Source: Candidatus Doudnabacteria bacterium (lineage in GTDB: Bacteria > Patescibacteriota > Doudnabacteria > UBA920 > O2-02-FULL-48-8). Taken from it: a DNA stretch of 47,975 bases. Below, piece after piece: positions 2,900 through 25,634 of the stretch. The DNA is taken from assembly GCA_019659055.1 (NCBI GenBank), contig JAIFWV010000005.1, positions 1 to 47,975 on the forward strand, read 5' to 3'. The notes under the pieces were generated by a model. That model made no database searches. It was not told where the DNA came from and saw only the letters and a program-made list of their open reading frames with translations. Made by a program: the position numbers and the translations under genes. How positions within the stretch are numbered: position 1 is the first letter of the stretch; each line of letters opens with the position of its first letter.

Positions 2900-3664
2900 C
2901 TATTTTTGACCGAGAGAAATCGCGGTCATCTGTTGTTTTACAGTTTCGTAGTAAGCGGCAAGCTCAGCGTGCGCTTGCGGCAGAGCAATCACATGGAAAG
3001 CTGATTGCGGATGGGTCTCCTTGAAGTAGATTGCCACTCCGAGGTTGGTCAGCTCGGCTAAGTAGCTCTCTAGGATTTTTTGCTGTTCGAGTGGCATGCC
3101 CATGCGTGTGATATCGAAGGCCAGGCCAAAGACGTGAGTCGGAGGGACTTTCATCTTGAGGACATTGGCTGTGGGATTGCCGCGCATGAGCCGAAGCTGG
3201 TATTTCCACGAGCGCACGAGACTGGTCACCTCAGAGGACCCTGTGCCCTGCATATGGTCGCAGATGCGGAGCAAGAGTCCAGCGGCGGCCGGCCGCAGAC
3301 CGTAATAGTATCCGCGGTGCGGGAGATCTTTTTCGGCGATGGGCCACTTGCCCGATTTCCGCAGACTCATGCCGCAAATACCGATAATGTCGCTCACATC
3401 CACGAGCTCGTGCCTATCCCAAGCCAGCTTCAGCGCCTTGAAGTCCGCAATCCAGAACTGCTGGCGGACTTGGGGTGTAAAGATTCCCCAGAGCTGAGCT
3501 TTCTTGGTGAGAGTGAGGTACGAGGTGTCGAGCGGTACCGGGGGCGGTGGAGCCAGCGGAAGCTTCACAGCAGTTCCGGGCGGGAGTACCAGGGGAGGAG
3601 GCGATTGTTCAGCCATCCCCTGCAGACCTGCGATTGCAAAAATCGCTGCAAGTAAAACAGCCAT
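2900..3664 (-). CDS. Secreted DUF5715-like protein (Hedgehog/DD-peptidase, M15-like fold)
   Basis: Signal peptide, Pro-rich linker, then LRP..., VTSLVR..YQ.RL..GN, H..G.AFDI, E..QSAFHV; SD GGAGG. Confidence 0.7.
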   Translation of the reverse strand: MAVLLAAIFAIAGLQGMAEQSPPPLVLPPGTAVKLPLAPPPPVPLDTSYLTLTKKAQLWGIFTPQVRQQFWIADFKALKLAWDRHELVDVSDIIGICGMSLRKSGKWPIAEKDLPHRGYYYGLRPAAAGLLLRICDHMQGTGSSEVTSLVRSWKYQLRLMRGNPTANVLKMKVPPTHVFGLAFDITRMGMPLEQQKILESYLAELTNLGVAIYFKETHPQSAFHVIALPQAHAELAAYYETVKQQMTAISLGQK

Positions 3665-3734
3665 AAGGCCTCCATTTTGGTTTTTGTGTCAGGTGCGAAA
3701 ACCGATACTTTCATTCTATGCCTTTCCTATGCTC

Positions 3735-3763
3735 TTTACAAATGCCGGCGTTTAGTGTAATAT
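3735..3763 (+). promoter_or_regulatory. Putative sigma70 promoter
   Basis: TTTACA-N17-TAATAT upstream of small ORF 3796. Confidence 0.45.
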
Positions 3764-3795
3764 GTGCTGTTGGTCAACACACATGAGGAGGATAC

Positions 3796-3954
3796 TTGAG
3801 AAGATTGTTGGAAGAATTGCGAAAGTTGTTTGCGGGCCGTTTCAGCGATCGTCGCGTGACCCGTGAGACGGTCGTGTATTACGATGATCTGGAAAGCCAG
3901 GACATCCTCAGCACGAAGGCAGCGCTTTCGCCCAAGGGCCTGCAGAGACTCTAG
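3796..3954 (+). CDS. Small hypothetical protein, 52 aa (not in ORF track)
   Basis: SD GAGGAGG, TTG start, MRRLLEELRKLFAGRF...; flanked by a promoter and a terminator. Confidence 0.55.
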   Translation: MRRLLEELRKLFAGRFSDRRVTRETVVYYDDLESQDILSTKAALSPKGLQRL

Positions 3955-3984
3955 AGTTCGCCACCCCACCTCTCTCTATTTGCC

Positions 3985-4017
3985 AGGATCCGCTTAAGCC
4001 CGGGTCCTTTTTCTTTT
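3985..4017 (+). terminator. Intrinsic terminator
   Basis: AGGATCCG/CGGGTCCT stem followed by TTTTCTTTT. Confidence 0.7.
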
Positions 4018-4022
4018 GTAAG

Positions 4023-4080
4023 CATTTCGACCGGAGGGAGAAATCCCTCATCAGAGCGATCTCTCACGATGTTCGAGATG
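4023..4080. repeat. REP-like palindrome pair of the type that flanks GIY-YIG genes, here with no gene inside
   Basis: CATTTCGACCGGAGGGAGAAATC...GATCTCTCACGATGTTCGAGATG, mutually inverted arms. Confidence 0.55.
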
Positions 4081-4184
4081 GAAAATAGGCCAAATTCGTA
4101 CTTATCGCATTACACCATAAAGTACGGAAACCTGAGTTTGAGGCTTAGATAAGCCATTATTTAGGCCTACTTTGCCCTTGGCTA

Positions 4185-4226
4185 CTCCGACGTCTTAGTC
4201 GGAGCCCCGACCCGAAAGCGTCGGGG
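4185..4226. repeat. CGTC-type double palindrome
   Basis: CTCCGAC-n6-GTCGGAG abutting CCCCGAC-n8-GTCGGGG. Confidence 0.65.
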
Positions 4227-4255
4227 TTGACACAAACCCCATTTGGGTGTATACT
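4227..4255 (+). promoter_or_regulatory. Strong sigma70 promoter at head of the cassette array
   Basis: TTGACA (4227-4232) - 17 nt - TATACT (4250-4255). Confidence 0.75.
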
Positions 4256-4396
4256 TACTCGTTAACATAAAAGCTTCAAAATTTATGGTAGAAATAGGCT
4301 ATTTCAGGAAATGGCCAAAACCTCACCTTAGATTGCAGTAGTCCGGTTTTGGATTTATTTCCGAAGCCGGACTTTTGTATAGTCACTTTCTAATTA

Positions 4397-4442
4397 TTCT
4401 CGCCCGCTTGCGGGAGAGATGGCCGAAGGCCAGAGAGGGTGG
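4397..4442. repeat. DUF559-type REP, left-arm orientation
   Basis: TTCTCGCCCGCTTGCGGGAGAGATGGCCGAAGGCCAGAGAGGG. Confidence 0.6.
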
Positions 4443-4564
4443 CTTCCAGGATGTTGGGCACTACTGGGTTTAAGAGGGATAAATTCACATTTGCCCATTA
4501 ACTTATCTAGTTAGTACCCAGCATTCTGGAAGCAACGGAAACAATTTTCGAACGGAGGAGTTTG

Positions 4565-4765
4565 ATGAAGAAGTTGACTGGCTGTGCCATCATCATCGTA
4601 TATTACATCGCTTTAGCACTTGTCGTCATTTACGCAAACAGGCACTATCCAGTGACTACAGACGGCGACAAGATGTTGAGAGTTATCTGGACAACGTTCG
4701 GCGTACTGGTTCCGTTCGCGGTGGCTGCCTGGCGTAGTACCCGTTTGGAGCCGCCTCGCCAATAG
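4565..4765 (+). CDS. Small two-TM hypothetical protein
   Basis: SD GGAGGAG then ATG 4565; two hydrophobic segments. Confidence 0.7.
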   Translation: MKKLTGCAIIIVYYIALALVVIYANRHYPVTTDGDKMLRVIWTTFGVLVPFAVAAWRSTRLEPPRQ

Positions 4766-4847
4766 GCGAGTGTTAAGAGGAGCGCGATTAGCTATAAAGG
4801 TTTCGCTCTCTTCTCCACTTCAGAAGTCTTCTCAGGAGGTGCGCAAG

Positions 4848-5027
4848 ATGGCGAAGAAATTCCAAATGAGGGCTCAGGTCACCACTTATGTGGGCGACAA
4901 GCTGGTCACACGGCATGTCGTCTATGTCAACGGCGTCTGGCGCGACAAGGCCGGCGAGATCTACTCGGATCGCTTCGTCGATTTCTGCCGGCGGCAGACC
5001 ACTGCAGCTAAGGCGGCGCGGCGCTAG
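4848..5027 (+). CDS. Small basic hypothetical protein
   Basis: SD AGGAGGT, ATG 4848 (MAKKFQMRAQV...). Confidence 0.7.
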   Translation: MAKKFQMRAQVTTYVGDKLVTRHVVYVNGVWRDKAGEIYSDRFVDFCRRQTTAAKAARR

Positions 5028-5177
5028 GTTCCAGAGGGGAAATAATTAGAATATCTTTTGTTTCCTCTCCACTATTCTGAATACTTAATTGTTGTAACAC
5101 GGATATTACCGTAAAGTTCGCTAAGCATTCAGAGTTGTGGAAGCACTACAGCTTTCCAGGTTTTCAGGAGGAGTTCG

Positions 5178-5684
5178 ATGCAGTTGACAAAAGGCATGTA
5201 TGGACACCAGTTCCGCAACGCAAGCCGCATGTACGGGCTTTCATGCGGACAGATGCGCGGCGACGATATGGTCCATAACGGCGGCTGGTACAATGCTGCC
5301 GGGGAAAAGCTCGGCTGGGGCGACCTGTCTCGCCAGGACTTCGAACGAATTTCGTCCGAAATCGAAGAGGGCGAGATCTTCGTGGTCCTATACGAGGGCG
5401 ACGCGTTCTGGAAGTTCGTTACGCACAATCCTGGAATTATCGGGAGCATGTGCAAGACGAGGCCGGACGCGGAAGCTCCGGGAGTTGATTATGTCGCCCA
5501 GAAAGCGGCATGGATCATCACTCGCGGCAAGGTCTTCCATGTCAGCGACTACAGCGAGAGGCTCGGCCCGGAGACACATCGACGCAACGGCATGGCGTTT
5601 GAGCTGACTAACCGGTCTGCTGCCAATACGCTCATCCGTACCACAGCACTCAGGTACGGGAAGGGCGCAGAAACGATCATGTAA
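5178..5684 (+). CDS. Hypothetical protein (HNGGWYN..GEKLGWGDL motif)
   Basis: SD AGGAGGAG; natural-looking globular sequence; function not recognised. Confidence 0.8.
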   Translation: MQLTKGMYGHQFRNASRMYGLSCGQMRGDDMVHNGGWYNAAGEKLGWGDLSRQDFERISSEIEEGEIFVVLYEGDAFWKFVTHNPGIIGSMCKTRPDAEAPGVDYVAQKAAWIITRGKVFHVSDYSERLGPETHRRNGMAFELTNRSAANTLIRTTALRYGKGAETIM

Positions 5685-5867
5685 GATCAGACCTACCGCA
5701 CAGCTCGATCGAGCAGTGCATGAGTCCCCACTTATAGGCGACAAGCCAAGAGGAGTTGATGCAAATCACTCCTCTCCACCTCAGAAGCCATGAATCGTGA
5801 GACATGAATCGTAAATCGTCTCACGCATCACGCTATACGTATCACAACTTGTGATGTGGAGGCAGAT

Positions 5868-5957
5868 ATGAAGAAACGGCCGCAGAAAATACCGCGCAAG
5901 ATTCCTCGGCCAAAGCGGATACGCATCCAGTCGTACACACTCAGCTGGATCAAATAG
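5868..5957 (+). CDS. 29-aa Lys/Arg/Pro-rich peptide (not in ORF track)
   Basis: SD GGAGG, MKKRPQKIPRKIPRPKRIRIQSYTLSWIK; its stop overlaps the next gene's SD. Confidence 0.5.
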   Translation: MKKRPQKIPRKIPRPKRIRIQSYTLSWIK

Positions 5958-5971
5958 GAGGAGTTCGAAAG

Positions 5972-6292
5972 ATGGCATTTAGCCCCGACCGACAGGAGCG
6001 CCTGCGCCGGATCATCGAAGCACATTTGGACGATGATCCGTGGGACGCAAGCCTTGAGCCCACGAGGAGGAATTCGATGGCCGGATTCGCTAACTACACC
6101 GGCGGGCACATCAGCGACGAGACCTTAGGTTACTACGCTGACGGTCTGCTCACTCCAGACGAATTCGACAAGACTCGCGCGCACATCAAGCATTGCGTAC
6201 CGTGCGAGTGGAAAATGCACAACTACGAGGAATACCTGGATATCGATTCGGCCAAGCGGAAATTCCACTGGACGAATCAGCAGCTATCATAA
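5972..6292 (+). CDS. zf-HC2 (anti-sigma-type zinc finger) domain protein
   Basis: H.S.E.LGYY.DG.L.......AHIKHCVPC = HxxxCxxC motif; SD AGGAGGAG. Confidence 0.75.
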   Translation: MAFSPDRQERLRRIIEAHLDDDPWDASLEPTRRNSMAGFANYTGGHISDETLGYYADGLLTPDEFDKTRAHIKHCVPCEWKMHNYEEYLDIDSAKRKFHWTNQQLS

Positions 6293-6323
6293 CCTTCCGC
6301 ACTGGCGTTCCGCTAGTGCAAAA

Positions 6324-6367
6324 CCCTCTCTGTCGCTTCGCGACATCTCTCCCACAAGGGGAGAGAA
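6324..6367. repeat. DUF559-type REP, right-arm orientation
   Basis: CCCTCTCTGTCGCTTCGCGACATCTCTCCCACAAGGGGAGAGAA; inverse of the 4397-4442 arm. Confidence 0.65.
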
Positions 6368-6397
6368 TAAAGTGAGATGACGATTGGGCCCACCAGT

Positions 6398-6464
6398 CGA
6401 GCAGTCTGCAATATAGATTGCTCGCCCTTCCAAAGAGTTTCAAATCTGGAACTTTGTGGAAGGG
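6398..6464 (+). repeat. Divergent abutting double-hairpin spacer (R0)
   Basis: CGAGCAGTCT/AGATTGCTCG hairpin directly followed by CCCTTCCA-AAGAGTTTCAAATCTGGAACTTTG-TGGAAGGG; inner part resembles R2/R6. Confidence 0.6.
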
Positions 6465-6514
6465 AATAGCAAGAGCACGATAAACCAACACTGTCAGATG
6501 TGAGGAGGTTTGCG

Positions 6515-6718
6515 ATGAGAATGATCGTTGCCGTGAGTGCGCCGGGATTGCCGCCGACACCTCCGTTTGGGGGACTGGAGGGGCATCTGGTCGAAGTCGG
6601 CCAGGTGGACGACACGGTGGAAGCCGGCGTCGTCGCCCTCGAAAAGGTCCAGGCCGAATGGGACCTGCCGACGCCCGTGATGAAGGTTACGGGGTTCCGT
6701 CTCAAGAGCCGCAACTAG
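6515..6718 (+). CDS. Small hypothetical protein
   Basis: SD GAGGAGGT, ATG 6515. Confidence 0.65.
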   Translation: MRMIVAVSAPGLPPTPPFGGLEGHLVEVGQVDDTVEAGVVALEKVQAEWDLPTPVMKVTGFRLKSRN

Positions 6719-6906
6719 TTTCTTTAGGAAAGGATCACTAGCGAAATAGCAAAATGACGTCTTGATCGAGCAGACGGTTCAAATCGATCTGGCTTGCCGG
6801 AACAGCCACATAAAATTGAAAAAATCCGGAATTGTGCGCGTCTACCTGATGGAGGATTACATGTCGCGTATATAACTGCCGCCTGCAAGGGCGCCAGAAC
6901 TGAATA

Positions 6907-6979
6907 GGGGATCTCTCGCCAAGATCCCCACCTTTCTCGAGAGTTTGAGTCGATCCTGATTCCAACTTTCAAGTTTGGT
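6907..6979 (+). repeat. Conserved double-hairpin cassette spacer R1
   Basis: GGGGATCT/AGATCCCC hairpin + core ACCTTTCTCGAG (6930-6941) ... TTCAAGTTTGGT. Confidence 0.85.
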
Positions 6980-7004
6980 AGCCGTTCTTTACAAGGAGAG
7001 TCAA

Positions 7005-7835
7005 GTGAGAAAGACATTGTCAGTAGTCGCGTTGGTTCTTTGCTCGTCGTACGCCGCTGTCGCGCAGGACAAGATTCGGGTTTCCGCAACTGTCGAGACG
7101 ACCACCTCACAAGTGATCAGCTCCTCAGCCAAGAGCGAGAACGCCGGCATCGAGTTCCTGCCGTCGCGCTGGGTCACTTCCCAGCAGATCATGACGATCA
7201 CGACCGCACCCACTAAGAAGCTCAGCGCGGCTGTTCGGTTCAATCTCGCCGGTTCCGCGGAGAATCCGCCGGTCGACCGGGATCCCAAAACTGGGGTCGA
7301 GTACCGCGTGCAAGATCTGCGATCGTACTCGGGCGAGAACCGCTTGTTCGAGGCCTCGGCCGCTTACAAGGTCTGGCGGCAGGTTTCGGCCGTCGGCGGG
7401 TACACAAGACTGTCGCTTGCCGGCAGGTACGAAAATACCATTCCCTACGGCTACTACGACGGGGGATTGGTGACTACCTACTCCGAGAGACAGACGTACC
7501 GGGGCATCGAGCTCGGCGCACGTTCGGATTTTGCGATTCGCGGCCTTACCCTCGAGCCGGAATTTCTGCTCTACCCGCGTATCAGCCGGAACTTCCGTTC
7601 GCACCAGAACTACCTCGGCCATGTCTACGACAACGACATCGACCAGAACACTGGCCGGCGCGTGGGAATGCAGATGAGCGGACGGGCAAAGTATGCTCTG
7701 GTCCGACACCTCGCGGCGACGTTCTCCTACAACCTCCAGGTCATCCGAACCACGAACAAAGTCATGTTCGGCGGTCCGGCGCGGGAGAGCTTAAAGACTC
7801 GCACCGCCATGGTCGGTCTGCAGGTCGGGTTCTAA
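7005..7835 (+). CDS. Secreted protein with outer-membrane beta-barrel features
   Basis: GTG start after SD AAGGAG; signal peptide; alternating amphipathic strands; C-terminal ...VGLQVGF. Confidence 0.65.
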   Translation: MRKTLSVVALVLCSSYAAVAQDKIRVSATVETTTSQVISSSAKSENAGIEFLPSRWVTSQQIMTITTAPTKKLSAAVRFNLAGSAENPPVDRDPKTGVEYRVQDLRSYSGENRLFEASAAYKVWRQVSAVGGYTRLSLAGRYENTIPYGYYDGGLVTTYSERQTYRGIELGARSDFAIRGLTLEPEFLLYPRISRNFRSHQNYLGHVYDNDIDQNTGRRVGMQMSGRAKYALVRHLAATFSYNLQVIRTTNKVMFGGPARESLKTRTAMVGLQVGF

Positions 7836-7879
7836 ACGCTGCTCAAATCGCATTCGTGCGACACGAGCGCGTGGTTTCC

Positions 7880-7955
7880 GACCAGCCCCAGTTTTATTAA
7901 CTGGAGCTGGTCACCTTTCTTGAGAGTTCCAATCAATGGAACTTTCACGATTGGT
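7880..7955 (+). repeat. Conserved double-hairpin cassette spacer R2
   Basis: GACCAGC..CCAG/CTGG..GCTGGTC hairpin + core ACCTTTCTTGAG (7913-7924) ... ATTGGT. Confidence 0.85.
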
Positions 7956-7966
7956 AGGAGGATCAA

Positions 7967-8401
7967 ATGCTTTTTGAACTTTTTGTAGTTGTGCTCGTCA
8001 TGAACGTGCTCGCTCAATTCGCTGCAACGCGCAGCAATCGGACTGAGCGGATCCTCGGAATCGGTGCTGCGATCACCCTTGCATCTCTGTTGGGCGGGGT
8101 AGCCAATTATATGGACGAATCCAGAAAGAGGAGTGCAATAATCGACCAGCTCGACGCTATGACAAACCAGACCGCAGATGTCGTTGCGGTGGAACCCATT
8201 GCCGCCAAGCACTATGTGCTGCTTCGGCACCGCATCCTCGAGATCGACGGCAAGAAGCTGGATCTGGTGATAGGCAAGTACATGCAAATGCAAACCGACC
8301 AGTCCGAGTGGGTTTACGCCCTTCCGCGCTGGGCGGCGTCCGGGCGGATTGTCGACCACGGTTACCCGTACGAAGCGGGGCCTGCTAAAGACTCGCGTTA
8401 G
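7967..8401 (+). CDS. Hypothetical membrane protein (two N-terminal TM segments)
   Basis: SD AGGAGG; hydrophobic N-terminus, soluble C-terminus. Confidence 0.75.
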   Translation: MLFELFVVVLVMNVLAQFAATRSNRTERILGIGAAITLASLLGGVANYMDESRKRSAIIDQLDAMTNQTADVVAVEPIAAKHYVLLRHRILEIDGKKLDLVIGKYMQMQTDQSEWVYALPRWAASGRIVDHGYPYEAGPAKDSR

Positions 8402-8407
8402 CGCCAA

Positions 8408-8490
8408 GTGGAGGCGAATTTCGAAAGATTTCGCTTCCACACCTTTCTTGAGGTTTCGAGTCAATCACGATTCGAGGACTCAAGATTGGT
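8408..8490 (+). repeat. Conserved double-hairpin cassette spacer R3
   Basis: GTGGAGGCGAA/TTCGCTTCCAC hairpin + core ACCTTTCTTGAG (8441-8452) ... CTCAAGATTGGT. Confidence 0.9.
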
Positions 8491-8505
8491 CCGAAGGAGG
8501 AATAC

Positions 8506-8829
8506 ATGCGGAAGATTCTGTTACTAGTTCTTATCTTTGTTTCGGCCTGCACGGCAGCTTCGGGGCCGGATTTCCGCATCAGGTGGGAAACGCAAGCTTA
8601 CGATGGCCCGTTCAAAGCCGTCGTAACTCAGGTCCAGGAGACTCTCGGGTCGATTGTCGCTGTCAACGTGCTAGTCGATCAATCTGAGCGCCGAAAATTC
8701 CAGCAGTTGGCGGCGATTGGTTCAAACCTGAAGATCGCCGATCACGTCACGTGCAGGGTCGGAACTCTAACTAATGGTATGGCCAATGACGTCGTGACTG
8801 TGTGTGTGGCAGCAACCCCGAAACAATAA
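8506..8829 (+). CDS. Putative lipoprotein
   Basis: SD AAGGAGG; MRKILLLVLIFVSAC lipobox-like signal. Confidence 0.7.
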   Translation: MRKILLLVLIFVSACTAASGPDFRIRWETQAYDGPFKAVVTQVQETLGSIVAVNVLVDQSERRKFQQLAAIGSNLKIADHVTCRVGTLTNGMANDVVTVCVAATPKQ

Positions 8830-8836
8830 GCTGTTC

Positions 8837-8919
8837 GTGGAGGCGAATTTCGAAAGATTTCGCTTCCACACCTTTCTTGAGAGTTTGAGTCAATCCTGAT
8901 TCCAACTTTCAAGTTTGGT
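8837..8919 (+). repeat. Conserved double-hairpin cassette spacer R4
   Basis: First 45 nt identical to R3; core 8870-8881; second hairpin nearly identical to R1. Confidence 0.9.
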
Positions 8920-8959
8920 GGCTGTTCTTTCAAGCGCGAGAAGCGCGATGAGGTGTGTG

Positions 8960-9229
8960 ATGGCTATCATGGGCGATGGGGGTTGGATTGTACCGCCTCG
9001 ATTCCCTTTCCCTGAACTTTCGACCGAATGGACTAAGTCCCCGGAACTACGACGGTTTTCGGTTCCAGAGGGGACCATGTACCAGAGAGATGAGTACGCT
9101 CTCTCGAAATTGCAGGCTGTTCTCCCGGTTGGCGATCGGTTGGTGCGAGATTGGCTCAGCGAAGCGAAGACACGCAGGCTTGTCGATGACCACACTCATT
9201 ATTGTCTGCTTTGGTATGCAGATAAATAA
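8960..9229 (+). CDS. Hypothetical protein (start uncertain: 8948/8960/8969)
   Basis: Open frame between spacers R4 and R5; GAGGTG precedes ATG 8960. Confidence 0.55.
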   Translation: MAIMGDGGWIVPPRFPFPELSTEWTKSPELRRFSVPEGTMYQRDEYALSKLQAVLPVGDRLVRDWLSEAKTRRLVDDHTHYCLLWYADK

Positions 9230-9277
9230 CATTGCTCAAATTGCTCATCAAAGAAGCGAAGCGAGCGTGTAATTCCT

Positions 9278-9355
9278 GACCAGTCCCAGTTTGTTAAACT
9301 GGAGCTGGTCACCTTTCTCGAGTCCCGCACATGGTGTGGGGGATTCAAGATCGGA
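9278..9355 (+). repeat. Conserved double-hairpin cassette spacer R5
   Basis: Hairpin 1 homologous to R2; core ACCTTTCTCGAG (9311-9322) ... TTCAAGATCGGA. Confidence 0.85.
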
Positions 9356-9378
9356 AACAGTATGGGAGGATTGGAAAA

Positions 9379-9741
9379 ATGAAGAAGAACTTCGTAATCG
9401 TGGGGCTGTTCTGTTTGTCGGTTGCCAGCTTGAGCTGGAACTTCAGCCAGTACCAGCACACCGGCATGCTGAAGAACGCCGCCGCGCAGTTGTCTACACT
9501 GACGACGCACTCCGAACGCAGCGAGTTCGCGATCGTCATTCCGTTTGAAGACACGCCGGTACTGATGCGCCGTGCTGATGTCGAGATCAATGGTGTGGTC
9601 GAACATCTCGTATGCGGACGCGAAAAGTATGACGCGAACGCCGACGAGAACCGGCTCTGGTTCGACGACAAGCTCGTGGCCAAGCTGGAAACCCCGATGT
9701 CGCAGTTCGGGCTGTACGAGGGCCACAAGCCCAATCGGTAG
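9379..9741 (+). CDS. Exported/membrane-anchored hypothetical protein
   Basis: SD GGGAGG; MKKNFVIVGLFCLSVASLSW signal-like N-terminus. Confidence 0.75.
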   Translation: MKKNFVIVGLFCLSVASLSWNFSQYQHTGMLKNAAAQLSTLTTHSERSEFAIVIPFEDTPVLMRRADVEINGVVEHLVCGREKYDANADENRLWFDDKLVAKLETPMSQFGLYEGHKPNR

Positions 9742-9748
9742 CAGTACG

Positions 9749-9828
9749 GTGGAGGCGAATTTCTGAAAAGATTTCGCTTCCACCCCTTTCTTGAGAGTTT
9801 CAAATTCCTTGGAACTCCGAAGTTTGGG
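9749..9828 (+). repeat. Conserved double-hairpin cassette spacer R6
   Basis: Hairpin 1 as R3/R4 (+2 nt in loop); core CCCTTTCTTGAG (9784-9795) ... AAGTTTGGG (compensatory ACC/GGT to CCC/GGG). Confidence 0.85.
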
Positions 9829-9853
9829 TGTTAGGTTCAACAGGAGGATGCAG

Positions 9854-10717
9854 ATGGACAGAAAGTTCAAAGCGTTGAGTCCGCGTGCTCGGTGGGCAGT
9901 TCGCATCAGTTCCGGCGCAGTTCTCATGAGCCTGTTGCTCATGGGGATGTGCTCCCGGAAAGAGACGCCCCAGCCGAACGTGCCGAACCCTGCTCCGCAG
10001 GCTCATCACGTCGTCCGGCGCGGCGAGTTCCTCAAGTCGATCGCACCGCAGTACCGCAACGTCAGCTGGGAGTCGATCTTGCTGGCCAACGAGCCGTACC
10101 TCAAGGGGAAATACCTCGAGACGTGCGAACCATTCTCGGCATCGTACACCAACAACAGTCGCAGGCGTGGGCTGTTCTGCAACGACCGGTTCCATCGGCC
10201 GTACGGCAACACCCTCAAACCGGGTTGGACGCTCGCCATTCCGGCCGGCACGGCGCCGCAAGACGTCGAACAGACCGTGAAGGACTACACTGATTCCGGC
10301 GACGACGTCTCGATCGTCATCGACGATTCGGGTTCCATGGCTGAGGACCGCCGCACAGTGGCACAGTTCTATCTGGCGGCGCTTCAGAAACATGGGCGCA
10401 ACATCGAAGCAGTCTATCTCTACGTCGACGGGTCGGTGCGTCGGCTCGAAGTCCCCAAAGACATCGAGTCGGAAATGCACACAAGTGGCAACATCGAGAA
10501 TACCTACGAGGCGCTGCGCACCGCGGCTGGTGACCGCCCGGACAAAATCATCCTCATCACGGATGAACCGGGGGATGACTGGCCGGCGGACTTCGGCGGC
10601 ATGAAACTGCCGCCGGTGATCGCGACTTGCCTGGCCGATCACGGCTATCACGCGTGCGAAAGTACGCTCATGAAAGTCGCGAAAGTGACTCATGGGAAAT
10701 ATGTAGCGTACAGGTAA
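9854..10717 (+). CDS. Membrane-anchored LysM-like + VWA domain protein
   Basis: TM, then HVVRRGEFLKSIA...ILLAN...LKPGWTLAIP (LysM-like, with insertion), then IVIDDSGSM (MIDAS) and IILITDE. Confidence 0.75.
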   Translation: MDRKFKALSPRARWAVRISSGAVLMSLLLMGMCSRKETPQPNVPNPAPQAHHVVRRGEFLKSIAPQYRNVSWESILLANEPYLKGKYLETCEPFSASYTNNSRRRGLFCNDRFHRPYGNTLKPGWTLAIPAGTAPQDVEQTVKDYTDSGDDVSIVIDDSGSMAEDRRTVAQFYLAALQKHGRNIEAVYLYVDGSVRRLEVPKDIESEMHTSGNIENTYEALRTAAGDRPDKIILITDEPGDDWPADFGGMKLPPVIATCLADHGYHACESTLMKVAKVTHGKYVAYR

Positions 10718-10730
10718 AGCTTGTTCATAA

Positions 10731-10922
10731 AGGGGAGTGGGATTATCATTATAGATCTCCTGCTCCTCTCTCTACTCCTGGATCGCCAATGCGATGGTAT
10801 TGGGTTCCAGAAGTAGGGCGCTCGGCACTTTGCAAAAGTACCGGCCGTAAATTTCTGCTGAAATTTCGGCCTACTCGCTCGGACCGTCGTCCTGTGCGGG
10901 TTACTTTTGCCAAGTGCCTCGC
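10731..10922 (+). other. Almost fully base-paired spacer: abutting double hairpin plus three-way junction
   Basis: Hairpins ~10731-10769 and 10770-10818; GGCACTT-T-GCAAAAGTA...TACTTTTGC-C-AAGTGCC enclosing two hairpins. Confidence 0.65.
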
Positions 10923-10954
10923 TAAGAATAAAATTGAAGTTCAAGGAGGAGATT

Positions 10955-11128
10955 GTGGTTGAAAAAACTGTCGAGATCCTGGCCACTCACAAGTTGTTGA
11001 TCATGACGCTTTATGTTGGGATCAGTTCGCTGATCCTGCTCGGCTCAGAACCTCGAAGCCTTGTTCGCAGAGCCACCTACGGCATTGCCGCGGCGGTCTG
11101 CATCGCAATCATCGTTTCCAGAATCTGA
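10955..11128 (+). CDS. Small two-TM hypothetical protein
   Basis: SD AAGGAGGAG, GTG 10955. Confidence 0.65.
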   Translation: MVEKTVEILATHKLLIMTLYVGISSLILLGSEPRSLVRRATYGIAAAVCIAIIVSRI

Positions 11129-11137
11129 GAGGACCTC

Positions 11138-11455
11138 ATGCTGACTTTAACTGTAAAGATCGTCGGGGTGTTTCTCCTCGTAGTTCTCGTGGTACTGACT
11201 GTGATCCATCCGTTTCGCTTCCGTAAGGAAGTGGCCGCCCTCAAGGACCTCGTCGATTTGAAGATTCGGGAAATGAACCGCTTGCGCCTGCAATCCGGCG
11301 GTACGTCGTTCCACATGCCGGCAGGCGGCGTCACCGACGACGCCGAGGGGGAGATCAAATCGTACTGCCGCGAAAAGGGGTACGAGATCACCTTCAACCG
11401 CGAGCAGAAGAAGATTAGCCTCGTGAAGATTCCTCAATGGAACCGTCAGAGGTAG
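11138..11455 (+). CDS. Single-TM hypothetical protein
   Basis: GAGG SD; N-terminal TM. Confidence 0.7.
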   Translation: MLTLTVKIVGVFLLVVLVVLTVIHPFRFRKEVAALKDLVDLKIREMNRLRLQSGGTSFHMPAGGVTDDAEGEIKSYCREKGYEITFNREQKKISLVKIPQWNRQR

Positions 11456-11459
11456 CACG

Positions 11460-11529
11460 GAGGAACGAGACCAGTTCTCGTTCCTCTCCATTCTCGCAAG
11501 TTCAAAAAATTTGAGCCTGGGAGAATGGA
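11460..11529 (+). repeat. Divergent abutting double-hairpin spacer
   Basis: GAGGAACGAGA/TCTCGTTCCTC directly followed by TCCATTCTC...GAGAATGGA. Confidence 0.65.
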
Positions 11530-11581
11530 TACAGCTTCGACAAACAAAAAACCCGAGTTCTTTTCAAACTGAGAGGAATAT

Positions 11582-11926
11582 ATGTCATCAAGTGCATACG
11601 CGCGCACAACCATGGTTTTTGTCGGACCGGAACTTCTGGTCTGTCTCAACCCCGATTCTGATCCCAGACGGATGCAAACCGAACTCAACGAAGCCATTCG
11701 GCTTGAAGGTATGAAGGGCGTGAAATTCCGTCGCGGCTCCGAAATGGAAGACCGGATGTATTACTTCTATTTCCGGATCGGTAAGTTCGAATTCCGCTCA
11801 ATAGCGGCCGGAACGGAAGCCGAAAACCTCGAAAGATACGATGCTATGCGGAGGAACTACCAGCAGATTCTCGCCTCAAACGGCGAAATGAAGCTTCGCA
11901 TATTCTTGACAAGACAGGAGGCTTAG
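11582..11926 (+). CDS. Hypothetical protein
   Basis: GAGAGG SD; open frame; function not recognised. Confidence 0.7.
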   Translation: MSSSAYARTTMVFVGPELLVCLNPDSDPRRMQTELNEAIRLEGMKGVKFRRGSEMEDRMYYFYFRIGKFEFRSIAAGTEAENLERYDAMRRNYQQILASNGEMKLRIFLTRQEA

Positions 11927-11927
11927 C

Positions 11928-12188
11928 ATGGATCTGTCGCGAAGATTTATTGTTGCCGCAACCGTGCTGGTCATCTTGCCGGGCTTACCGTGGTTTGACC
12001 CGCACCGAATCGCCGCCAGATTGTTTGGGGAAATGACCCCGGATTATCCGCTGGCGATTGCATTGCTTGGACTGACCGGGGTTATCTTGGCCTTCGCCTT
12101 TGCGGCGGTGGTTGTAGAGTCCAGGGTCAAGGACAAATCACTCGGATATCTCATCGATACGATTGGCGATGAACGAAAGGATGGTTAA
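11928..12188 (+). CDS. Two-TM hypothetical protein
   Basis: SD AGGAGG; two hydrophobic segments. Confidence 0.7.
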   Translation: MDLSRRFIVAATVLVILPGLPWFDPHRIAARLFGEMTPDYPLAIALLGLTGVILAFAFAAVVVESRVKDKSLGYLIDTIGDERKDG

Positions 12189-12650
12189 ATGGGAATTTCT
12201 CTCATGCACCTGACTCCAAACGAGATAGAGATGGCGGCCGAGTTCCAGCTTACCGAAATCTTAGAGAAACATCTCGAGGATTGCGCGCATTGCCGTGCCG
12301 CGCCGGCCGAGTTCCAGCTTACCGAAATCTTAGAGAAACATCTCGAGGATTGCGCGCATTGCCGTGCCGCGCTCAACGATTATGGTCGGCGCCTCCATAG
12401 TATCGACACCAACCCACAGACAGTAGGTTCCAATGGACCCTTGTTCATCTGCCCGCCCAATTGCGGCGGCTGTGGGTTTATCGGTTACGCGCTGGAACTT
12501 GAAAAGTCGCACGACGGCGATCTGCACTGTAAGTGCGGCAAGTATCGGCTTTACCATCTCACAAGGTTTAATTTCGCGTTGTTTTCCGAAGGTCTGGATC
12601 TTCACTCGCTGACCCGCGCGACGGCCATTCTCTGGCCGCGTACCCGTTGA
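12189..12650 (+). CDS. Cys-rich protein with duplicated zf-HC2-like motif
   Basis: HLEDCAHC twice, plus CPPNCGGC and HCKC. Confidence 0.65.
   Translation: MGISLMHLTPNEIEMAAEFQLTEILEKHLEDCAHCRAAPAEFQLTEILEKHLEDCAHCRAALNDYGRRLHSIDTNPQTVGSNGPLFICPPNCGGCGFIGYALELEKSHDGDLHCKCGKYRLYHLTRFNFALFSEGLDLHSLTRATAILWPRTR
12235..12372 (+). repeat. Perfect 69-bp tandem duplication (2 copies)
   Basis: 12235-12303 identical to 12304-12372. Confidence 0.95.
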
Positions 12651-12697
12651 AGTAAATCGCAAGCTTTGGTAGGATATATAGTCAACGGGAGGTCAAC

Positions 12698-12853
12698 ATG
12701 ATACTCGCCGCCGCCTGCGCGGGGATTGGGATTATATTCCTGGTGGTGCCGGAACTGAGTGTCTGGTGCCGGGTCCTGGGAATCGTGTATATAATTCTCG
12801 CGATCGCTACGGCCGTCGCCGCTGTTTCCGAAGCAAAAAGAGGAGGACGTTAG
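12698..12853 (+). CDS. 51-aa two-TM protein (not in ORF track)
   Basis: SD GGGAGGT; MILAAACAGIGIIFLVVPELSVWCRVLGIVYIILAIATAVAAVSEAKRGGR. Confidence 0.6.
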   Translation: MILAAACAGIGIIFLVVPELSVWCRVLGIVYIILAIATAVAAVSEAKRGGR

Positions 12854-12863
12854 CACAAGAAGA

Positions 12864-12982
12864 GAGAGTGGGCAGTTAAAATTGCTCACTCTCACTCGAT
12901 TTGTTTCCATGTACCTGCCGACGAATCTGATATTTCGTTTACGAAATGTCGGATCTCCTGTTCGTCGGCAGATATATGGAAA
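12864..12982. repeat. Hairpin pair closing the island
   Basis: GAGAGTGGGCAGT/ATTGCTCACTCTC and long TTTCCAT..CTGCCGACGAA...TTCGTCGGCAG..ATGGAAA stem. Confidence 0.6.
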
Positions 12983-13064
12983 TTTTGGGACTTGTTTTAA
13001 TCCCGAATTTATGTTATAAATTATTGGTCTTAATTTTAGTTTTCAGTAATTAGAAAGGCAAGCA

Positions 13065-13259
13065 ATGGGAGTCCCCAAAAAACATAAGACCCGGTCGGGC
13101 CGGAACCAACGACGTTCGCACGATCATCTTTCTAAATCCAATCTTTCTGTTTGCAGTAACTGTAAGTTTCCGGTGCGGCCGCATGAAGCCTGCCAGAACT
13201 GCGGCTTCTACAAAGGCAAGCAGGTACTTAAGATCAAAGCAAAGACGAAAGCCAAATAA
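13065..13259 (+). CDS. rpmF: 50S ribosomal protein L32
   Basis: MGVPKKHKT...RRSH...CSNC...PHEACQNCGFYKGK. Confidence 0.97.
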   Translation: MGVPKKHKTRSGRNQRRSHDHLSKSNLSVCSNCKFPVRPHEACQNCGFYKGKQVLKIKAKTKAK

Positions 13260-13366
13260 GAATTGACCTAATTACTCTAATTGATCTAATTTCTAAACGA
13301 GATCATTGGGGCGATTGGGTTATTTTTTAGGTCAATTAGAAATTAGTTATTAGAAATTTTCCGGAT

Positions 13367-13852
13367 ATGGCCAACAGGCATCTTTCAAGAACTATTGCTA
13401 TGCAATCCCTCTATGAGTGGGATTTCAACGACCGCACAGGCGACCTTGAGGAAATTACCAAGGTCAACGTCAAACAATTCGCTCCGGGATTGGAAGATCC
13501 TGAGTTTATTTATAATTTGGTTTCCGGTGTCCGGGAGCATATCCAAGATATAGACAAGATCATCGTGGCCACGGCGCCTGAGTGGCCGCTGGAGCAGATT
13601 ACCGTGATTGACCGGAATATTTTGCGCATTGGAATTTACGAACTTAAGTTTGCCAAAGAAGTTCCGCCAAAGGTGGCGATCAACGAGGCGGTGGAGCTGG
13701 GCAAAGCGTTTGGCGGCGAGTCATCCGGAAAATTCGTAAATGGAGTCTTGGGTACACTCTATAAAAACCTCCCGGAGGCTGAGAAAGAAAAAGGGGAAAA
13801 ACAGGAACCAGAAAACAGTAAACAGGAATCAGAAAAAACAAGCGGCGAGTAG
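13367..13852 (+). CDS. nusB: Transcription antitermination factor NusB
   Basis: [42 protein letters not shown]. Confidence 0.97.
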
Positions 13853-25211: not shown

Positions 25212-25634
25212 ATGCAATATAGCGAAGAAAGTTCAATGATCAAGGTTCAAAGTTCAAATAATGTTCAATTACCAAATGATCAAAAAACCACAAAATTTGA
25301 TCTGGAGGAACGGACGCTTAAATTTAGTAAAGAAGTTCTTGTTCTTCTAAAAATTCTGCCAAAAACAATAATAAGTATGCCTTTAATAACACAGCTCGTG
25401 AGATCCGCAACCAGTATCGGGGCAAATTGTTGCGAAGCAACCGAAGCTGGTTCAAAAAAAGACTTTATAAACAAGATCACAATCGCGAAAAAAGAAGCCA
25501 AGGAAACCAGATATTGGCTAAAGCTTATGTTAGACCTATTCCCAGCCGAGAGTTTAAAAATTCAAAAGCTGTTACAAGAAGCCCAAGAATTGAACTTAAT
25601 CCTATCAGCTATTGTCCGCAATTCAAAAAATTGA
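25212..25634 (+). CDS. Four-helix-bundle (23S rRNA IVS-like) protein; true start may be further downstream
   Basis: FDLEERT..F, QLVRSATSIGAN..EA, SKKDF.NK..IA.KEA.ET.YWL. Confidence 0.92.
   Translation: MQYSEESSMIKVQSSNNVQLPNDQKTTKFDLEERTLKFSKEVLVLLKILPKTIISMPLITQLVRSATSIGANCCEATEAGSKKDFINKITIAKKEAKETRYWLKLMLDLFPAESLKIQKLLQEAQELNLILSAIVRNSKN

Follow-up and report, generated by a model that had tools for sequence, protein, structure and literature searches.

Locus and setting

Six elements, R1–R6 (positions 6907–9828), are located as two-hairpin spacers between small genes and have a 12-base core in common (Table 1). The core ACCTTTCTYGAG was found at 6930, 7913, 8441, 8870 and 9311 and its variant CCCTTTCTTGAG at 9784; each of them reads in the + direction, and no others were found in the window (the whole stretch of DNA analysed, 47,975 bases). 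With at most one mismatch allowed, 6 matches were obtained vs 0.46 expected, and none of 100 shuffled sequences reached 6. Each copy points the same way as the genes beside it and sits in the gap between a stop codon and the ribosome-binding site (RBS) that follows; together the copies form one 3-kb array of a single orientation (within 48 kb). The same layout of hairpin 1 followed by hairpin 2, with other "cores", fills most of the remaining intergenic gaps of the island.

The window encodes NusB, HolA, type IV pilus genes, a histidine kinase and tRNAs. PilB is 73–86% identical to Doudnabacteria/Patescibacteria proteins (closest relatives by PilB: 82–86%); the island is >10 kb away from it and differs in composition from its surroundings. 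No match was obtained by blastn of the window against a phage collection, and no phage structural or replication family of PHROG was matched by window proteins; the PHROG matches were to unannotated families or generic cellular names (kinase, endolysin, transcriptional regulator), those of island proteins being weak. The window is a Doudnabacteria-like CPR chromosome, not a phage; a phage origin was rejected in view of the housekeeping and pilus genes. Among 40 Pfam-scanned window ORFs (the small island genes and almost every non-nested ORF ≥120 aa long), no tyrosine/serine recombinase domain and no RAYT or transposase gene was detected; no recombinase was found in the 17-kb L014 locus either.

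The product of g1 gave a match to Pfam OMP_b-brl below the cut-off (E = 0.03) and is 45% identical (aa) to that of locus L001, positions 4344–5171; a homologue search returned g1 itself only. No Pfam or PHROG match was obtained for g2 or g3, and an exact protein look-up found neither on record. The LysM match of g6 (Pfam, E = 5e-4) is just below the cut-off.

Table 1. Features of the array R1–R6 (window positions; CM, covariance model score).
Feature	Positions	Strand	Description
R1 hairpin 1, type A	6907..6929	+	GGGGATCT...AGATCCCC; predicted 8-bp stem abutting the core; 61–65% identical to L001 copies L1a and L1c
R1 hairpin 2	6930..6979	+	core 6930–6941, alpha apex, right arm TTCAAGTTTGGT; CM 56.3 bits; shared tail extends to 6990
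g1	7005..7835	+	276-aa signal-peptide protein, weakly OMP beta-barrel-like
B-type 3' extension after g1	7836..7879	+	GCTGCTCAAATCGC...GAGCGCGTGGTTTCC; homologous to 9230–9277; 72% identical to the stretch 3' of the L001 OMP gene
R2 hairpin 1, type B	7880..7912	+	88% identical to R5 hairpin 1; predicted fold
R2 hairpin 2	7913..7955	+	core 7913–7924, beta apex, right arm TTCACGATTGGT; CM 55.2 bits
g2	7967..8401	+	144-aa membrane-anchored ORFan (ORF list)
R3 hairpin 1, type C	8408..8440	+	identical to R4 hairpin 1
R3 hairpin 2	8441..8490	+	core 8441–8452, alpha' apex, right arm CTCAAGATTGGT; CM 55.3 bits
g3	8506..8829	+	107-aa putative lipoprotein ORFan (ORF list)
R4 hairpin 1, type C	8837..8869	+	same sequence as R3 hairpin 1
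R4 hairpin 2	8870..8919	+	core 8870–8881, alpha apex, right arm; CM 56.9 bits; shared tail extends to 8930
g4	8960..9229	+	89-aa ORFan, unrelated to g1
B-type 3' extension after g4	9230..9277	+	homology to extension after g1
R5 hairpin 1, type B	9278..9310	+	88% identical to R2 hairpin 1
R5 hairpin 2	9311..9355	+	core 9311–9322, gamma apex, right arm TTCAAGATCGGA; CM 50.2 bits; right arm and tail align with L001 copy L1b
g5	9379..9741	+	120-aa signal/TM ORFan
R6 hairpin 1, type C	9749..9783	+	2-nt loop insertion; 94% identical to R3/R4
R6 hairpin 2	9784..9828	+	core CCCTTTCTTGAG 9784–9795, beta' apex, right arm CCGAAGTTTGGG; CM 48.8 bits
g6	9854..10717	+	287-aa lipoprotein-like protein with LysM-like stretch

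Structure and conservation of the elements

Hairpin 1 abuts hairpin 2 in the predicted folds of 13/13 copies and is directly followed by ACCUUUCU in all of them. A preliminary description had named a common 12-nt core with arms on either side; this core was found, but it does not stand as a spacer between two hairpins: it forms the 5' strand of the hairpin 2 base, its partner being the conserved TCAAGWTTGGT. The base consists of the pairs ACC/GGT and TCTYGAG/YTCAAGA flanking a TT × TT bubble. The distance from core to right arm ranges from 15 to 49 nt, and the right arm of R2 is placed only 3 nt ahead of a Shine-Dalgarno sequence.

The same double hairpin was found in three other CPR MAGs, which gives 13 aligned copies in total. 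In a pattern search of genome contigs, 3/3 matches were CPR MAGs with the full architecture; it was present in 0/5 metagenome matches and 0/24 viral matches, which were discarded as chance (no hairpin 1, weak folds). A covariance model built from 12 copies recovered the untrained copy at 40.7 bits and found a new divergent copy in locus L002 (35.4 bits, E = 7e-6). In the spliced alignment A1, of which the hairpin-1 columns were taken from predicted stems and are paired by construction, 92.3% of cells are paired vs 68% in shuffles; 14/21 pairs change on both sides, which 0/500 shuffles reach (slid controls 30–54%), the copies analysed being few and partly non-independent. At G12·U1', 9/13 copies have a G·U wobble. 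In 13/13 copies the sense strand gives the more stable fold of the two strands (by −7 kcal/mol on average; Wilcoxon p = 2e-4), with 32 G·U pairs in the sense vs 17 in the antisense orientation.

Core and right arm hardly vary between MAGs with housekeeping proteins just 50–64% identical; recognition by a sequence-specific factor, or horizontal spread, would account for this more readily than a role in structure alone. In Rfam searches only tRNAs reached the gathering score, and nothing credible was obtained at E ≤ 5 over 3600–13400; literature searches gave no match to the motif and no described CPR intergenic element. New are the core as a strand of hairpin 2, the element itself, which is present in other CPR MAGs with strong covariation and not in Rfam, and the assignment of the window to a Doudnabacteria-like chromosome. 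The contexts of ten gene-X homologues (loci L010–L015, L039–L048) contained no type-I copies beyond those of the L001 contig; one of these loci has an analogous architecture with another core. No solitary copies of hairpin 1 were found elsewhere in the 48 kb, and the hairpin-1 types as independent dispersed repeats were rejected, there being no extra window copies; inverted pairs of the DNA-uptake-sequence kind were also rejected, the motif being restricted to 3 kb of 48 kb.

No sigma-70 promoter (−35/−10) was called in the elements by the promoter scan; the scan did call canonical sigma-70 promoters at other places in the island, and such promoters can be recognised by eye in loci L003 and L010. 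A sigma-70 promoter in the core was rejected (no −35/−10, block spacing of 15–49 nt). In L010 an analogous hairpin 2 is located just 3' of TTGACA-N18-TATAAT, i.e. in the 5' UTR. At 10718–10955 a pair of hairpin 1 and hairpin 2 is situated upstream of a canonical promoter, so that hairpin 2 there would belong to the 3' end of g6 and not to a leader. The terminator scan did not call the tail that follows hairpin 1 (ACCUUUCUU), a weak U-tract.

Probable exchange of left and right halves

The three types of hairpin 1 distinguished previously were reproduced: C (R3, R4 and R6; 94–100% identity), B (R2 and R5; 88%) and A (R1), at a shuffled 95th percentile of 52%. The hairpin-2 apices form the groups {R1, R4, (R3)}, {R2, R6} and R5 (identity: R1/R4 96%; R2/R6 76%; R3 vs R1/R4 67–70%); three hairpin-1 types and three apex types are met in five or six combinations. 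The proposal that hairpin 2 varies independently of hairpin 1 agrees with a Mantel r of 0.12 (p = 0.29) for hairpin 1 vs apex; for the extended arms, r = −0.01.

Stretches that the preliminary description had singled out gave the following: R1 and R4, with a near-identical right arm and tail, 92% identity over 66 nt (6925–6990 vs 8865–8930), 38/40 matches after the core and a shared tail of 11 nt; R3 and R4, with left arms identical at 45/45 nt (8408–8452 = 8837–8881), then only 27/40 matches; B-type homology upstream of the hairpin, 82% for 7835–7851 vs 9228–9244 and 82% for 7858–7924 vs 9256–9322, from the g1 and g4 stop codons onward. R3 does differ from R4 in its right arm, as had been stated; this arm is not an unrelated sequence, but a diverged relative of the R1/R4 arm (67–70%). 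Similarity switches at or just after the core, as described there, with junctions at the core or ≤5 nt from it: that of R2 and R5 falls from 32/40 to 8/40 across the core, and that of R4 and R6 switches 5 nt past it. Comparison of R4 with R3 and R1 gave 49 informative sites, of which 27/27 on the left agree with R3 and 21/22 on the right with R1; this puts the break somewhere between core base 9 and the first post-core base (maximum χ2 45.1, permutation p = 0.0001). R4 is a clean chimera, left R3 and right R1, with the junction within core bases 10–12.

Incongruent arms and breakpoints at the core, which the preliminary description had proposed to look for, are seen among the window copies: the groupings are uncorrelated (Mantel) and the break in R4 falls at the core (maximum χ2). 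These comparisons support unlinked histories of the left and right halves, with probable exchange at the core.

Window positions 6730–6941 (S segment and A-type left arm) are homologous to L001 5602–5883; the homology ends at the core, and past this end a different right arm and a different gene follow. This is a single synteny break, and the genomes compared are distant (g1 orthologue 45% aa).

Genes and their arms

It had further been proposed that each gene forms a cassette, flanked by a right arm on the 5' side and a left arm on the 3' side. This is not supported as stated, since unrelated ORFs share identical arms: g2, g3 and g5 each end with hairpin C, and g1 and g4, with no DNA or protein similarity, yet have the alpha 5' arm and the extB + B 3' arm in common. 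Because unrelated ORFs carry the same arms, second junctions are found at ORF/arm borders, namely, for type B, at the stop codon, for type C, at the base with which hairpin 1 begins, and also ~11 nt past the right arm. A gene was also expected to keep its arms in other genomes; g1, the sole gene with an orthologue (L001), keeps short proximal flanks only: the 45-nt 3' extension and an RBS-proximal leader stretch are retained, and the downstream hairpin 1 and the upstream apex are not. As judged from these alignments, genes do not visibly travel with their arms, and a gene-plus-arms cassette is not supported; the arms would exchange independently of the ORFs, and the shuffled unit would therefore be the arm.

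Interpretation and alternatives

The observed structure, conservation, strand bias, mosaicism and junction positions are best accounted for by R1–R6 as composite intercistronic modules of the mRNA strand, with halves exchanged at the core, in an array that sits in a horizontally acquired island of small secreted/membrane ORFan genes (probability of this explanation as a whole, about 0.55). Hairpin 1, G+C-rich and free in sequence, stands at the 3' end of the upstream cistron; the pyrimidine-rich core is the U/C-rich tail of hairpin 1 and at once the 5' strand of the hairpin 2 base; hairpin 2, with its conserved base (ACC/GGT, UU × UU bubble, UCUYGAG/YUCAAGA) and free apex, is placed in the leader, 3–40 nt ahead of the next Shine-Dalgarno sequence. 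Hairpin 1 with the core may act as a leaky terminator and/or 3'-end protector, and hairpin 2 may stabilise the 5' end and/or be a target of processing by an endonuclease (RNase III-type), so that each cistron would end up hairpin-capped at both ends. Exchanges between copies would resolve at the core because it is the sole sequence common to all copies; short-homology recombination, one-sided homology-facilitated events or template switching at hairpins may be the mechanism, and halves of different ancestry, exchanged independently of the ORFs, would be the outcome. The RNA function (termination, read-through, processing) and the recombination mechanism are deduced from sequence, and an identity of 12–17 nt is short for RecA-type recombination, which counts against the proposal.

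A layout of this kind is known from phage T7 early mRNA, with related RNase III hairpins containing an internal loop between successive cistrons of one transcript and sequence conserved around the loop. Likeness to R1–R6 extends to the internal-loop hairpins between cistrons and the conservation around the loop; the elements differ in the additional abutting hairpin 1 and the bacterial island, and their cleavage is putative. E. coli BIME/REP, pneumococcal BOX and Neisseria Correia elements are extragenic palindromic modules in varied orders, which are transcribed with their neighbours and affect termination, mRNA stability or RNase III processing; their copies number tens to hundreds and are scattered, some in one orientation and some in the other. 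Non-autonomous mosaic repeats of this type, whose hairpin modules spread or convert alone with gene adjacency being secondary, would explain the modularity (three hairpin-1 types combined with three apex types), the extragenic and palindromic nature of the elements and an identical hairpin C beside three unrelated genes, with homology from its first base; this is rather unlikely for six copies in one 3-kb array with fixed orientation and strict register vs stop and start codons (48 kb only), lacking solitary hairpin-1 copies in the 48 kb and a RAYT or transposase gene among the scanned ORFs, and with a strand-biased structure that argues for RNA function. Tandem duplicates that diverged with no exchange, the types resulting from uneven drift or from convergence under structural selection, are extremely unlikely: hairpins can drift while pairing holds, and the right arm of R3 resembles a drifted R1/R4 arm, but R3 and R4 match at 45/45 on one side vs 27/40 on the other, the informative sites change parent at a single point (27/27 to its left, 21/22 to its right; p = 1e-4), and the genes between the copies are unrelated.

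The analogy drawn in the preliminary description was to promoter-early stem-loops (PeSLs) of T4-type phages, defined, together with the mini-circles that arise by recombination between them, by Arbiol et al. 2010 (PMC2839356) and Comeau et al. 2014 (PMC4122927). It holds for the layout: short composite elements, a stem-loop beside a conserved sequence, flank co-directional ORFans in a plastic, compositionally distinct island, and rearrangement junctions fall inside the conserved part. In PeSLs the stem-loop is an effective terminator and the conserved part a strong sigma-70-like early promoter. The analogy does not hold for the promoter or the phage host: the conserved part is here a strand of a second hairpin and not a sigma-70-like promoter, the two conserved blocks pair with each other, and the location is a CPR chromosome instead of the hyperplastic regions of T4-like phage genomes; the elements resemble PeSLs without belonging to them. 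Mobile cassettes with a promoter for a host or other sigma factor in the conserved part, excised as ORF-plus-element mini-circles and reinserted at elements, would suit the chimera junctions at the conserved sequence and the one L001 synteny break at the core, but are unlikely in view of the missing −35/−10 pair, the 15–49 nt from core to the other conserved block, the position of the R2 right arm 3 nt from the Shine-Dalgarno sequence (no room for a downstream promoter) and the occurrence of canonical sigma-70 promoters in these genomes; circles would also keep arms linked to ORFs, and here unrelated ORFs have common arms. Very unlikely is an integron-like site in folded DNA, with hairpin 2 as an attC-like target of a recombinase whose gene lies elsewhere. 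In its favour are an array of small promoterless ORFs in one direction, in which every ORF precedes an imperfect hairpin (conserved inverted 12-nt arms at its base, an unpaired bubble and an apex of variable length), and a sequence kept across divergent genomes; but no tyrosine/serine recombinase (IntI) was found among the scanned window ORFs or those of the L014 locus (17 kb), the R''/R' consensus RYYYAAC/GTTRRRY is not matched by the arms ACCTTTC/GWTTGGT, TT(T) is mismatched in all copies exactly where attC R boxes pair, and the junction of the chimera falls within the 5' arm or directly behind it and not in the 3' R' box. Furthermore, attC is recombined as the bottom strand, the G·U bias here favours the sense strand, and hairpin 1 is without counterpart in attC; an integron attC array was rejected on the absence of a recombinase among the scanned ORFs, the arm consensus and the junction at the wrong arm.

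Significance

CPR/Patescibacteria are ultra-small bacteria, believed to be mostly episymbionts, whose host adaptation is thought to rest on rapidly changing small surface/secreted proteins; to our knowledge, almost nothing has been established about their non-coding regulatory elements and the turnover of such genes. If the elements merely tune termination or mRNA stability, they would be a useful but ordinary addition to the mosaic intergenic repeats. There is a small chance that the core and its inverted partner constitute a folded RNA/ssDNA recognition site of a CPR-specific enzyme which moves small secreted-protein genes or arms; the near-invariant 12 + 11-nt sequence in divergent MAGs would then be due to this folded site, and the enzyme would act within and between ultra-small bacteria, as part of a system that parallels phage PeSL shuffling in cells or resembles an integron lacking IntI. 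The locus offers a covariation-supported structured element that is common to divergent CPR lineages and not in Rfam, along with what reads as a sequence-level record of two halves exchanged at one 12-nt core. Plasticity of the PeSL kind had, according to the authors who described it, not been seen in cellular organisms (PMC2839356); the present locus may serve as a testable cellular analogue of that phage mechanism.

Core copies and similarity of the arms

R1–R6 are six intergenic elements, each a double hairpin that separates two cistrons, is conserved and shows strand bias; the halves are of unlinked ancestry and their junctions lie at the core. This core, the 12-nt sequence ACCTTTCTYGAG that starts hairpin 2, was found in six copies at ≤1 mismatch in the whole window, all on the plus strand from 6930 to 9795 (expected, 0.46; six reached in 0/100 shuffles). 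Segment-wise identities bore out the three hairpin-1 types proposed in the preliminary description: C (R3, R4, R6), 94–100%; B (R2, R5), 88%; A (R1), apart. Grouping of the hairpin-2 apices was unlike that of hairpin 1: alpha (R1/R4, 96%; R3, a diverged relative at 67–70%, alpha'), beta (R2 and, as beta', R6; 76%) and gamma (R5, apart); similarity in hairpin 1 and similarity in the apex were uncorrelated, as had been supposed (Mantel r = 0.12, p = 0.29; extended arms, same comparison, r = −0.01).

Matches across the core: R3/R4, described as having a common left arm and differing right arms, 45/45 nt through the final core base, then 27/40; R1/R4, described as sharing right arm and tail, 9/40 on the left of the core, 38/40 on the right and 9/11 along the tail; R2/R5, 32/40, then 8/40; the switch point of R4/R6 lies 5 nt past the core. 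With R4 taken as child of R3 and R1, the break falls between core base 9 and the first post-core base (informative sites: 27/27 match R3 to the left, 21/22 match R1 to the right; max χ2 45.1, permutation p = 1e-4), in keeping with a similarity switch at or just after the core. B-type homology sets in at the g1 and g4 stop codons (g1–g6 denote the genes 3' of R1–R6, respectively). The description of R1–R6 is confirmed, and chance falls far short of explaining the pattern.

Structure and strand

Rather than a neutral linker, the core is the left half of an inverted repeat of 12 nt, whose right arm is the conserved YTCAAGWTTGGT, and it pairs as part of hairpin 2. All copies fold with hairpin 1 directly abutting hairpin 2, the base of which consists of ACC/GGT, a TT x TT (or TTT x TTT) bubble and TCTYGAG/YTCAAGA, with a stem of free sequence beyond it; spacing between the conserved arms is 15–49 nt. 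Stem bases of 13 copies were spliced into a gap-free alignment, in which 92.3% of cells are paired (68% in shuffles, 30–54% with partner columns slid) and both sides change in 14/21 pairs (reached by 0/500 shuffles), the hairpin-1 columns being paired by construction, as they were picked from predicted stems, and the hairpin-2 columns being anchored on conserved sequence. One of these pairs is a G·U wobble in 9/13 copies. In all 13 copies the sense fold was more stable than the antisense one, on average by 7 kcal/mol (p = 2e-4; G·U pairs, 32 sense, 17 antisense). Sense-strand stability, together with fixed orientation and a position between stop codon and next Shine–Dalgarno sequence, points to function on the transcript. 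No matching family was found in an Rfam search.

Copies in other genomes

When 185,579 species genomes were scanned for the exact pattern, three loci came up, all in MAGs of CPR bacteria (Patescibacteria; two labelled Saccharibacteria, one Doudnabacteria), each with the complete order hairpin 1, core, hairpin 2, right arm, 10–25 nt, AGGAGG and start codon; several of them carry more than one copy. Five metagenome and 24 viral pattern matches, lacking hairpin 1 and folding weakly, were rejected as chance and served as internal control. Window and CPR loci together provided the 13 copies of the alignment. Trained on 12 of these, a covariance model scored the remaining one at 40.7 bits and added a divergent copy in locus L002 (35.4 bits, E = 7e-6); in the window it found no strong copy beyond R1–R6, and its two weak matches there are double hairpins with other cores. 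Housekeeping proteins are only 50–64% identical between these loci; core and right arm are nearly invariant, which might reflect a factor that recognises the sequence, or arm-bearing DNA that spread horizontally. The family with the R1–R6 core (type I) is a previously undescribed CPR RNA motif.

Host chromosome and small-ORF island

The window, with nearly all genes on the plus strand, four tRNAs and genes for NusB, DNA polymerase III delta, PilB/C/M/N, pilins, a histidine kinase, and lamin-tail, dockerin and TPR proteins, is a piece of bacterial chromosome. PilB shares 73–86% identity with proteins from MAGs of Doudnabacteria and the 'Patescibacteria group', and therefore the organism is a CPR bacterium, not a phage. 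blastn of the window against a phage collection gave no match; PHROG matches of the window belong to unannotated families or to families with generic cellular-function names (those of island proteins being weak), with no phage structural or replication family among them.

The island (ca. 20 small co-directional ORFs, ORFans; G+C 54% vs 40–50% in the remaining window) is flanked by a DUF5715-like gene on one side and by an L32-like ORF (rpmF, by eye) and then nusB on the other. The products of g1–g6, the six island genes that R1–R6 separate, are signal-peptide, lipoprotein or membrane ORFans. At the island start, a non-coding stretch of 600 nt holds a strong sigma-70-like promoter (TTGACA-17-TATACT) and, ca. 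85 nt on, a 14-bp hairpin with T-run, no ORF lying between; this could be a small-RNA gene. Gene X encodes a conserved hypothetical protein (168 aa; 86 homologues, every named one from CPR/Patescibacteria; no Pfam or PHROG family); it heads small-ORF islands in some genomes and occurs once in a phage-like contig (L048) of tightly packed small ORFs. Within a Cys-rich zf-HC2-like ORF, 69 nt are duplicated in tandem, in frame and without mismatch (2.0 copies, 100% match). A stretch of low G+C (40%) holds an ORF belonging to the '23S rRNA intervening sequence protein' family (PF05635).

Hairpin 1 and hairpin 2, with different 'cores', are laid out in the same way in most of the island's remaining intergenic gaps, and the CPR locus L010 has its own version, the first hairpin 2 standing directly 3' of the canonical promoter TTGACA-N18-TATAAT, i.e., in the 5' UTR; such islands therefore have the double hairpin as a general design, and type I is its largest sequence family. 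As one pair in the window stands upstream of a canonical promoter, hairpin 2 is not always a leader element. In L010, a reverse transcriptase gene lies directly 3' of the small-ORF operon with analogous double hairpins.

Coordinates of features in the window and in compared loci
Feature	Window	Other locus	Sequence
Small-ORF island (3.7–12.9 kb)	3700–12900		
DUF5715-like gene, minus strand	2900–3664		
Promoter and hairpin, island start	4227–4373		
Canonical promoters	4227–4255, 10907–10934		
Other-core double hairpins in island	5035–5140, 6399–6464, 10731–10816, 11459–11528		
Other-core hairpin 2	5069–5140		CCAC.TAT.TCTGAAT...ATTCAGA.GTT.GTGG
Other-core hairpin 2	6425–6464		CCCTTCCA...TGGAAGGG
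Other-core hairpin 2	11488–11528		CCATTCTC...GAGAATGG
Weak covariance-model matches	11487–11529, 6425–6464		
Hairpin 1 + hairpin 2 pair upstream of canonical promoter	10718–10955		
Gene X	5178–5684		
S segment + A-type left arm	6730–6941	L001 5602–5883	
Conserved block upstream of A-type hairpin 1	6855–6880	L001 5790–5815	GGAGGA..CATG(T/C)CGCGTATAT(A/G)A
g1 frame	6990–7835		
g4 frame	8930–9277		
Cys-rich zf-HC2-like ORF	12189–12650		
69-nt tandem duplication	12235–12372		
PF05635 ORF	25212–25634		
Reverse transcriptase (RVT_1) gene		L010 12021–13439	

The exchanged unit

Crossovers confined to the core would leave every ORF with its original right arm upstream and left arm downstream, as in the cassettes proposed earlier. 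This did not hold: the unrelated g2, g3 and g5 all end with hairpin C, and g1 and g4, devoid of DNA or protein similarity, both have alpha upstream and the B-type 3' extension plus hairpin B downstream (chance probability of this common arm pair ca. 0.1, with five genes). The arrangement resembles the replacement of one ORF by another within a conserved frame. Since unrelated ORFs have common arms, homology ends also at ORF/arm borders, namely at the stop codon (type B) and the first base of hairpin 1 (type C); alpha-arm homology ends ca. 11 nt past the right arm.

L001 is the sole locus with orthologous genes (gene X, 67–71%; g1, 45% amino acid identity), and there the outcome for the cassette expectation was mixed. 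In its favour, the S segment with the A-type left arm aligns with L001 and homology stops at the core, past which come a different right arm and a different gene; the element upstream of g1 is orthologous on both sides, with diverged apex. Against it, just the 45-nt extension persists downstream of g1, hairpin 1 belongs to a different type, and the right arm 3' of the L001 orthologue is related to that of R5, not R2. From the arms common to unrelated ORFs and the comparison with L001, the exchanged unit is therefore the arm, not a gene-plus-arms cassette. Junctions fall into several classes, among which the core is the sharpest and the commonest. A conserved block ca. 50 nt upstream of the A-type hairpin 1 in both loci can be read either as a mini-ORF of 4 codons or as a TATAT box resembling a −10 element, and might be the start of the g1–g6 transcript.

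Comparison with known systems

Promoter-early stem-loops (PeSLs) of T4-type phages, to which R1–R6 had been likened, consist of a terminator stem-loop and a conserved early promoter, flank ORFans and recombine between elements, mini-circles being formed (PMC2839356; PMC4122927). R1–R6 have the layout and apparently the junction behaviour in common with them, PeSL being the closest analogue, but the defining promoter test failed and the host is not a phage; they are therefore PeSL-like, not PeSL. Of the earlier interpretation, exchange at the core is supported, and the gene-plus-arms cassettes and the promoter analogy are not. A sigma-70 promoter was rejected: none was called within the elements, the two conserved blocks lack fixed spacing, and the R2 right arm ends 3 nt before the Shine–Dalgarno sequence; canonical promoters were found elsewhere in the window and, by eye, in L003 and L010. 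An attC site was rejected: no integrase was found among scanned window ORFs or in L014, the arms misfit R''/R', the chimera switches at the 5' arm and not at the 3' box, and the strand bias is sense. Within this window the elements are not a dispersed REP-like family. They resemble the mosaic intergenic repeats BIME, BOX and Correia, and the intercistronic RNase III hairpins of T7.

Hairpin 1 with the pyrimidine-rich core may act as leaky terminator and/or 3'-end protector, and hairpin 2 as 5' stabiliser and/or RNase III-type processing site; exchanges between copies would resolve within the core, the sole sequence common to all copies, by short-homology recombination, one-sided homology-facilitated events or template switching at hairpins. 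R1–R6 offer a testable cellular counterpart of PeSL-type shuffling.
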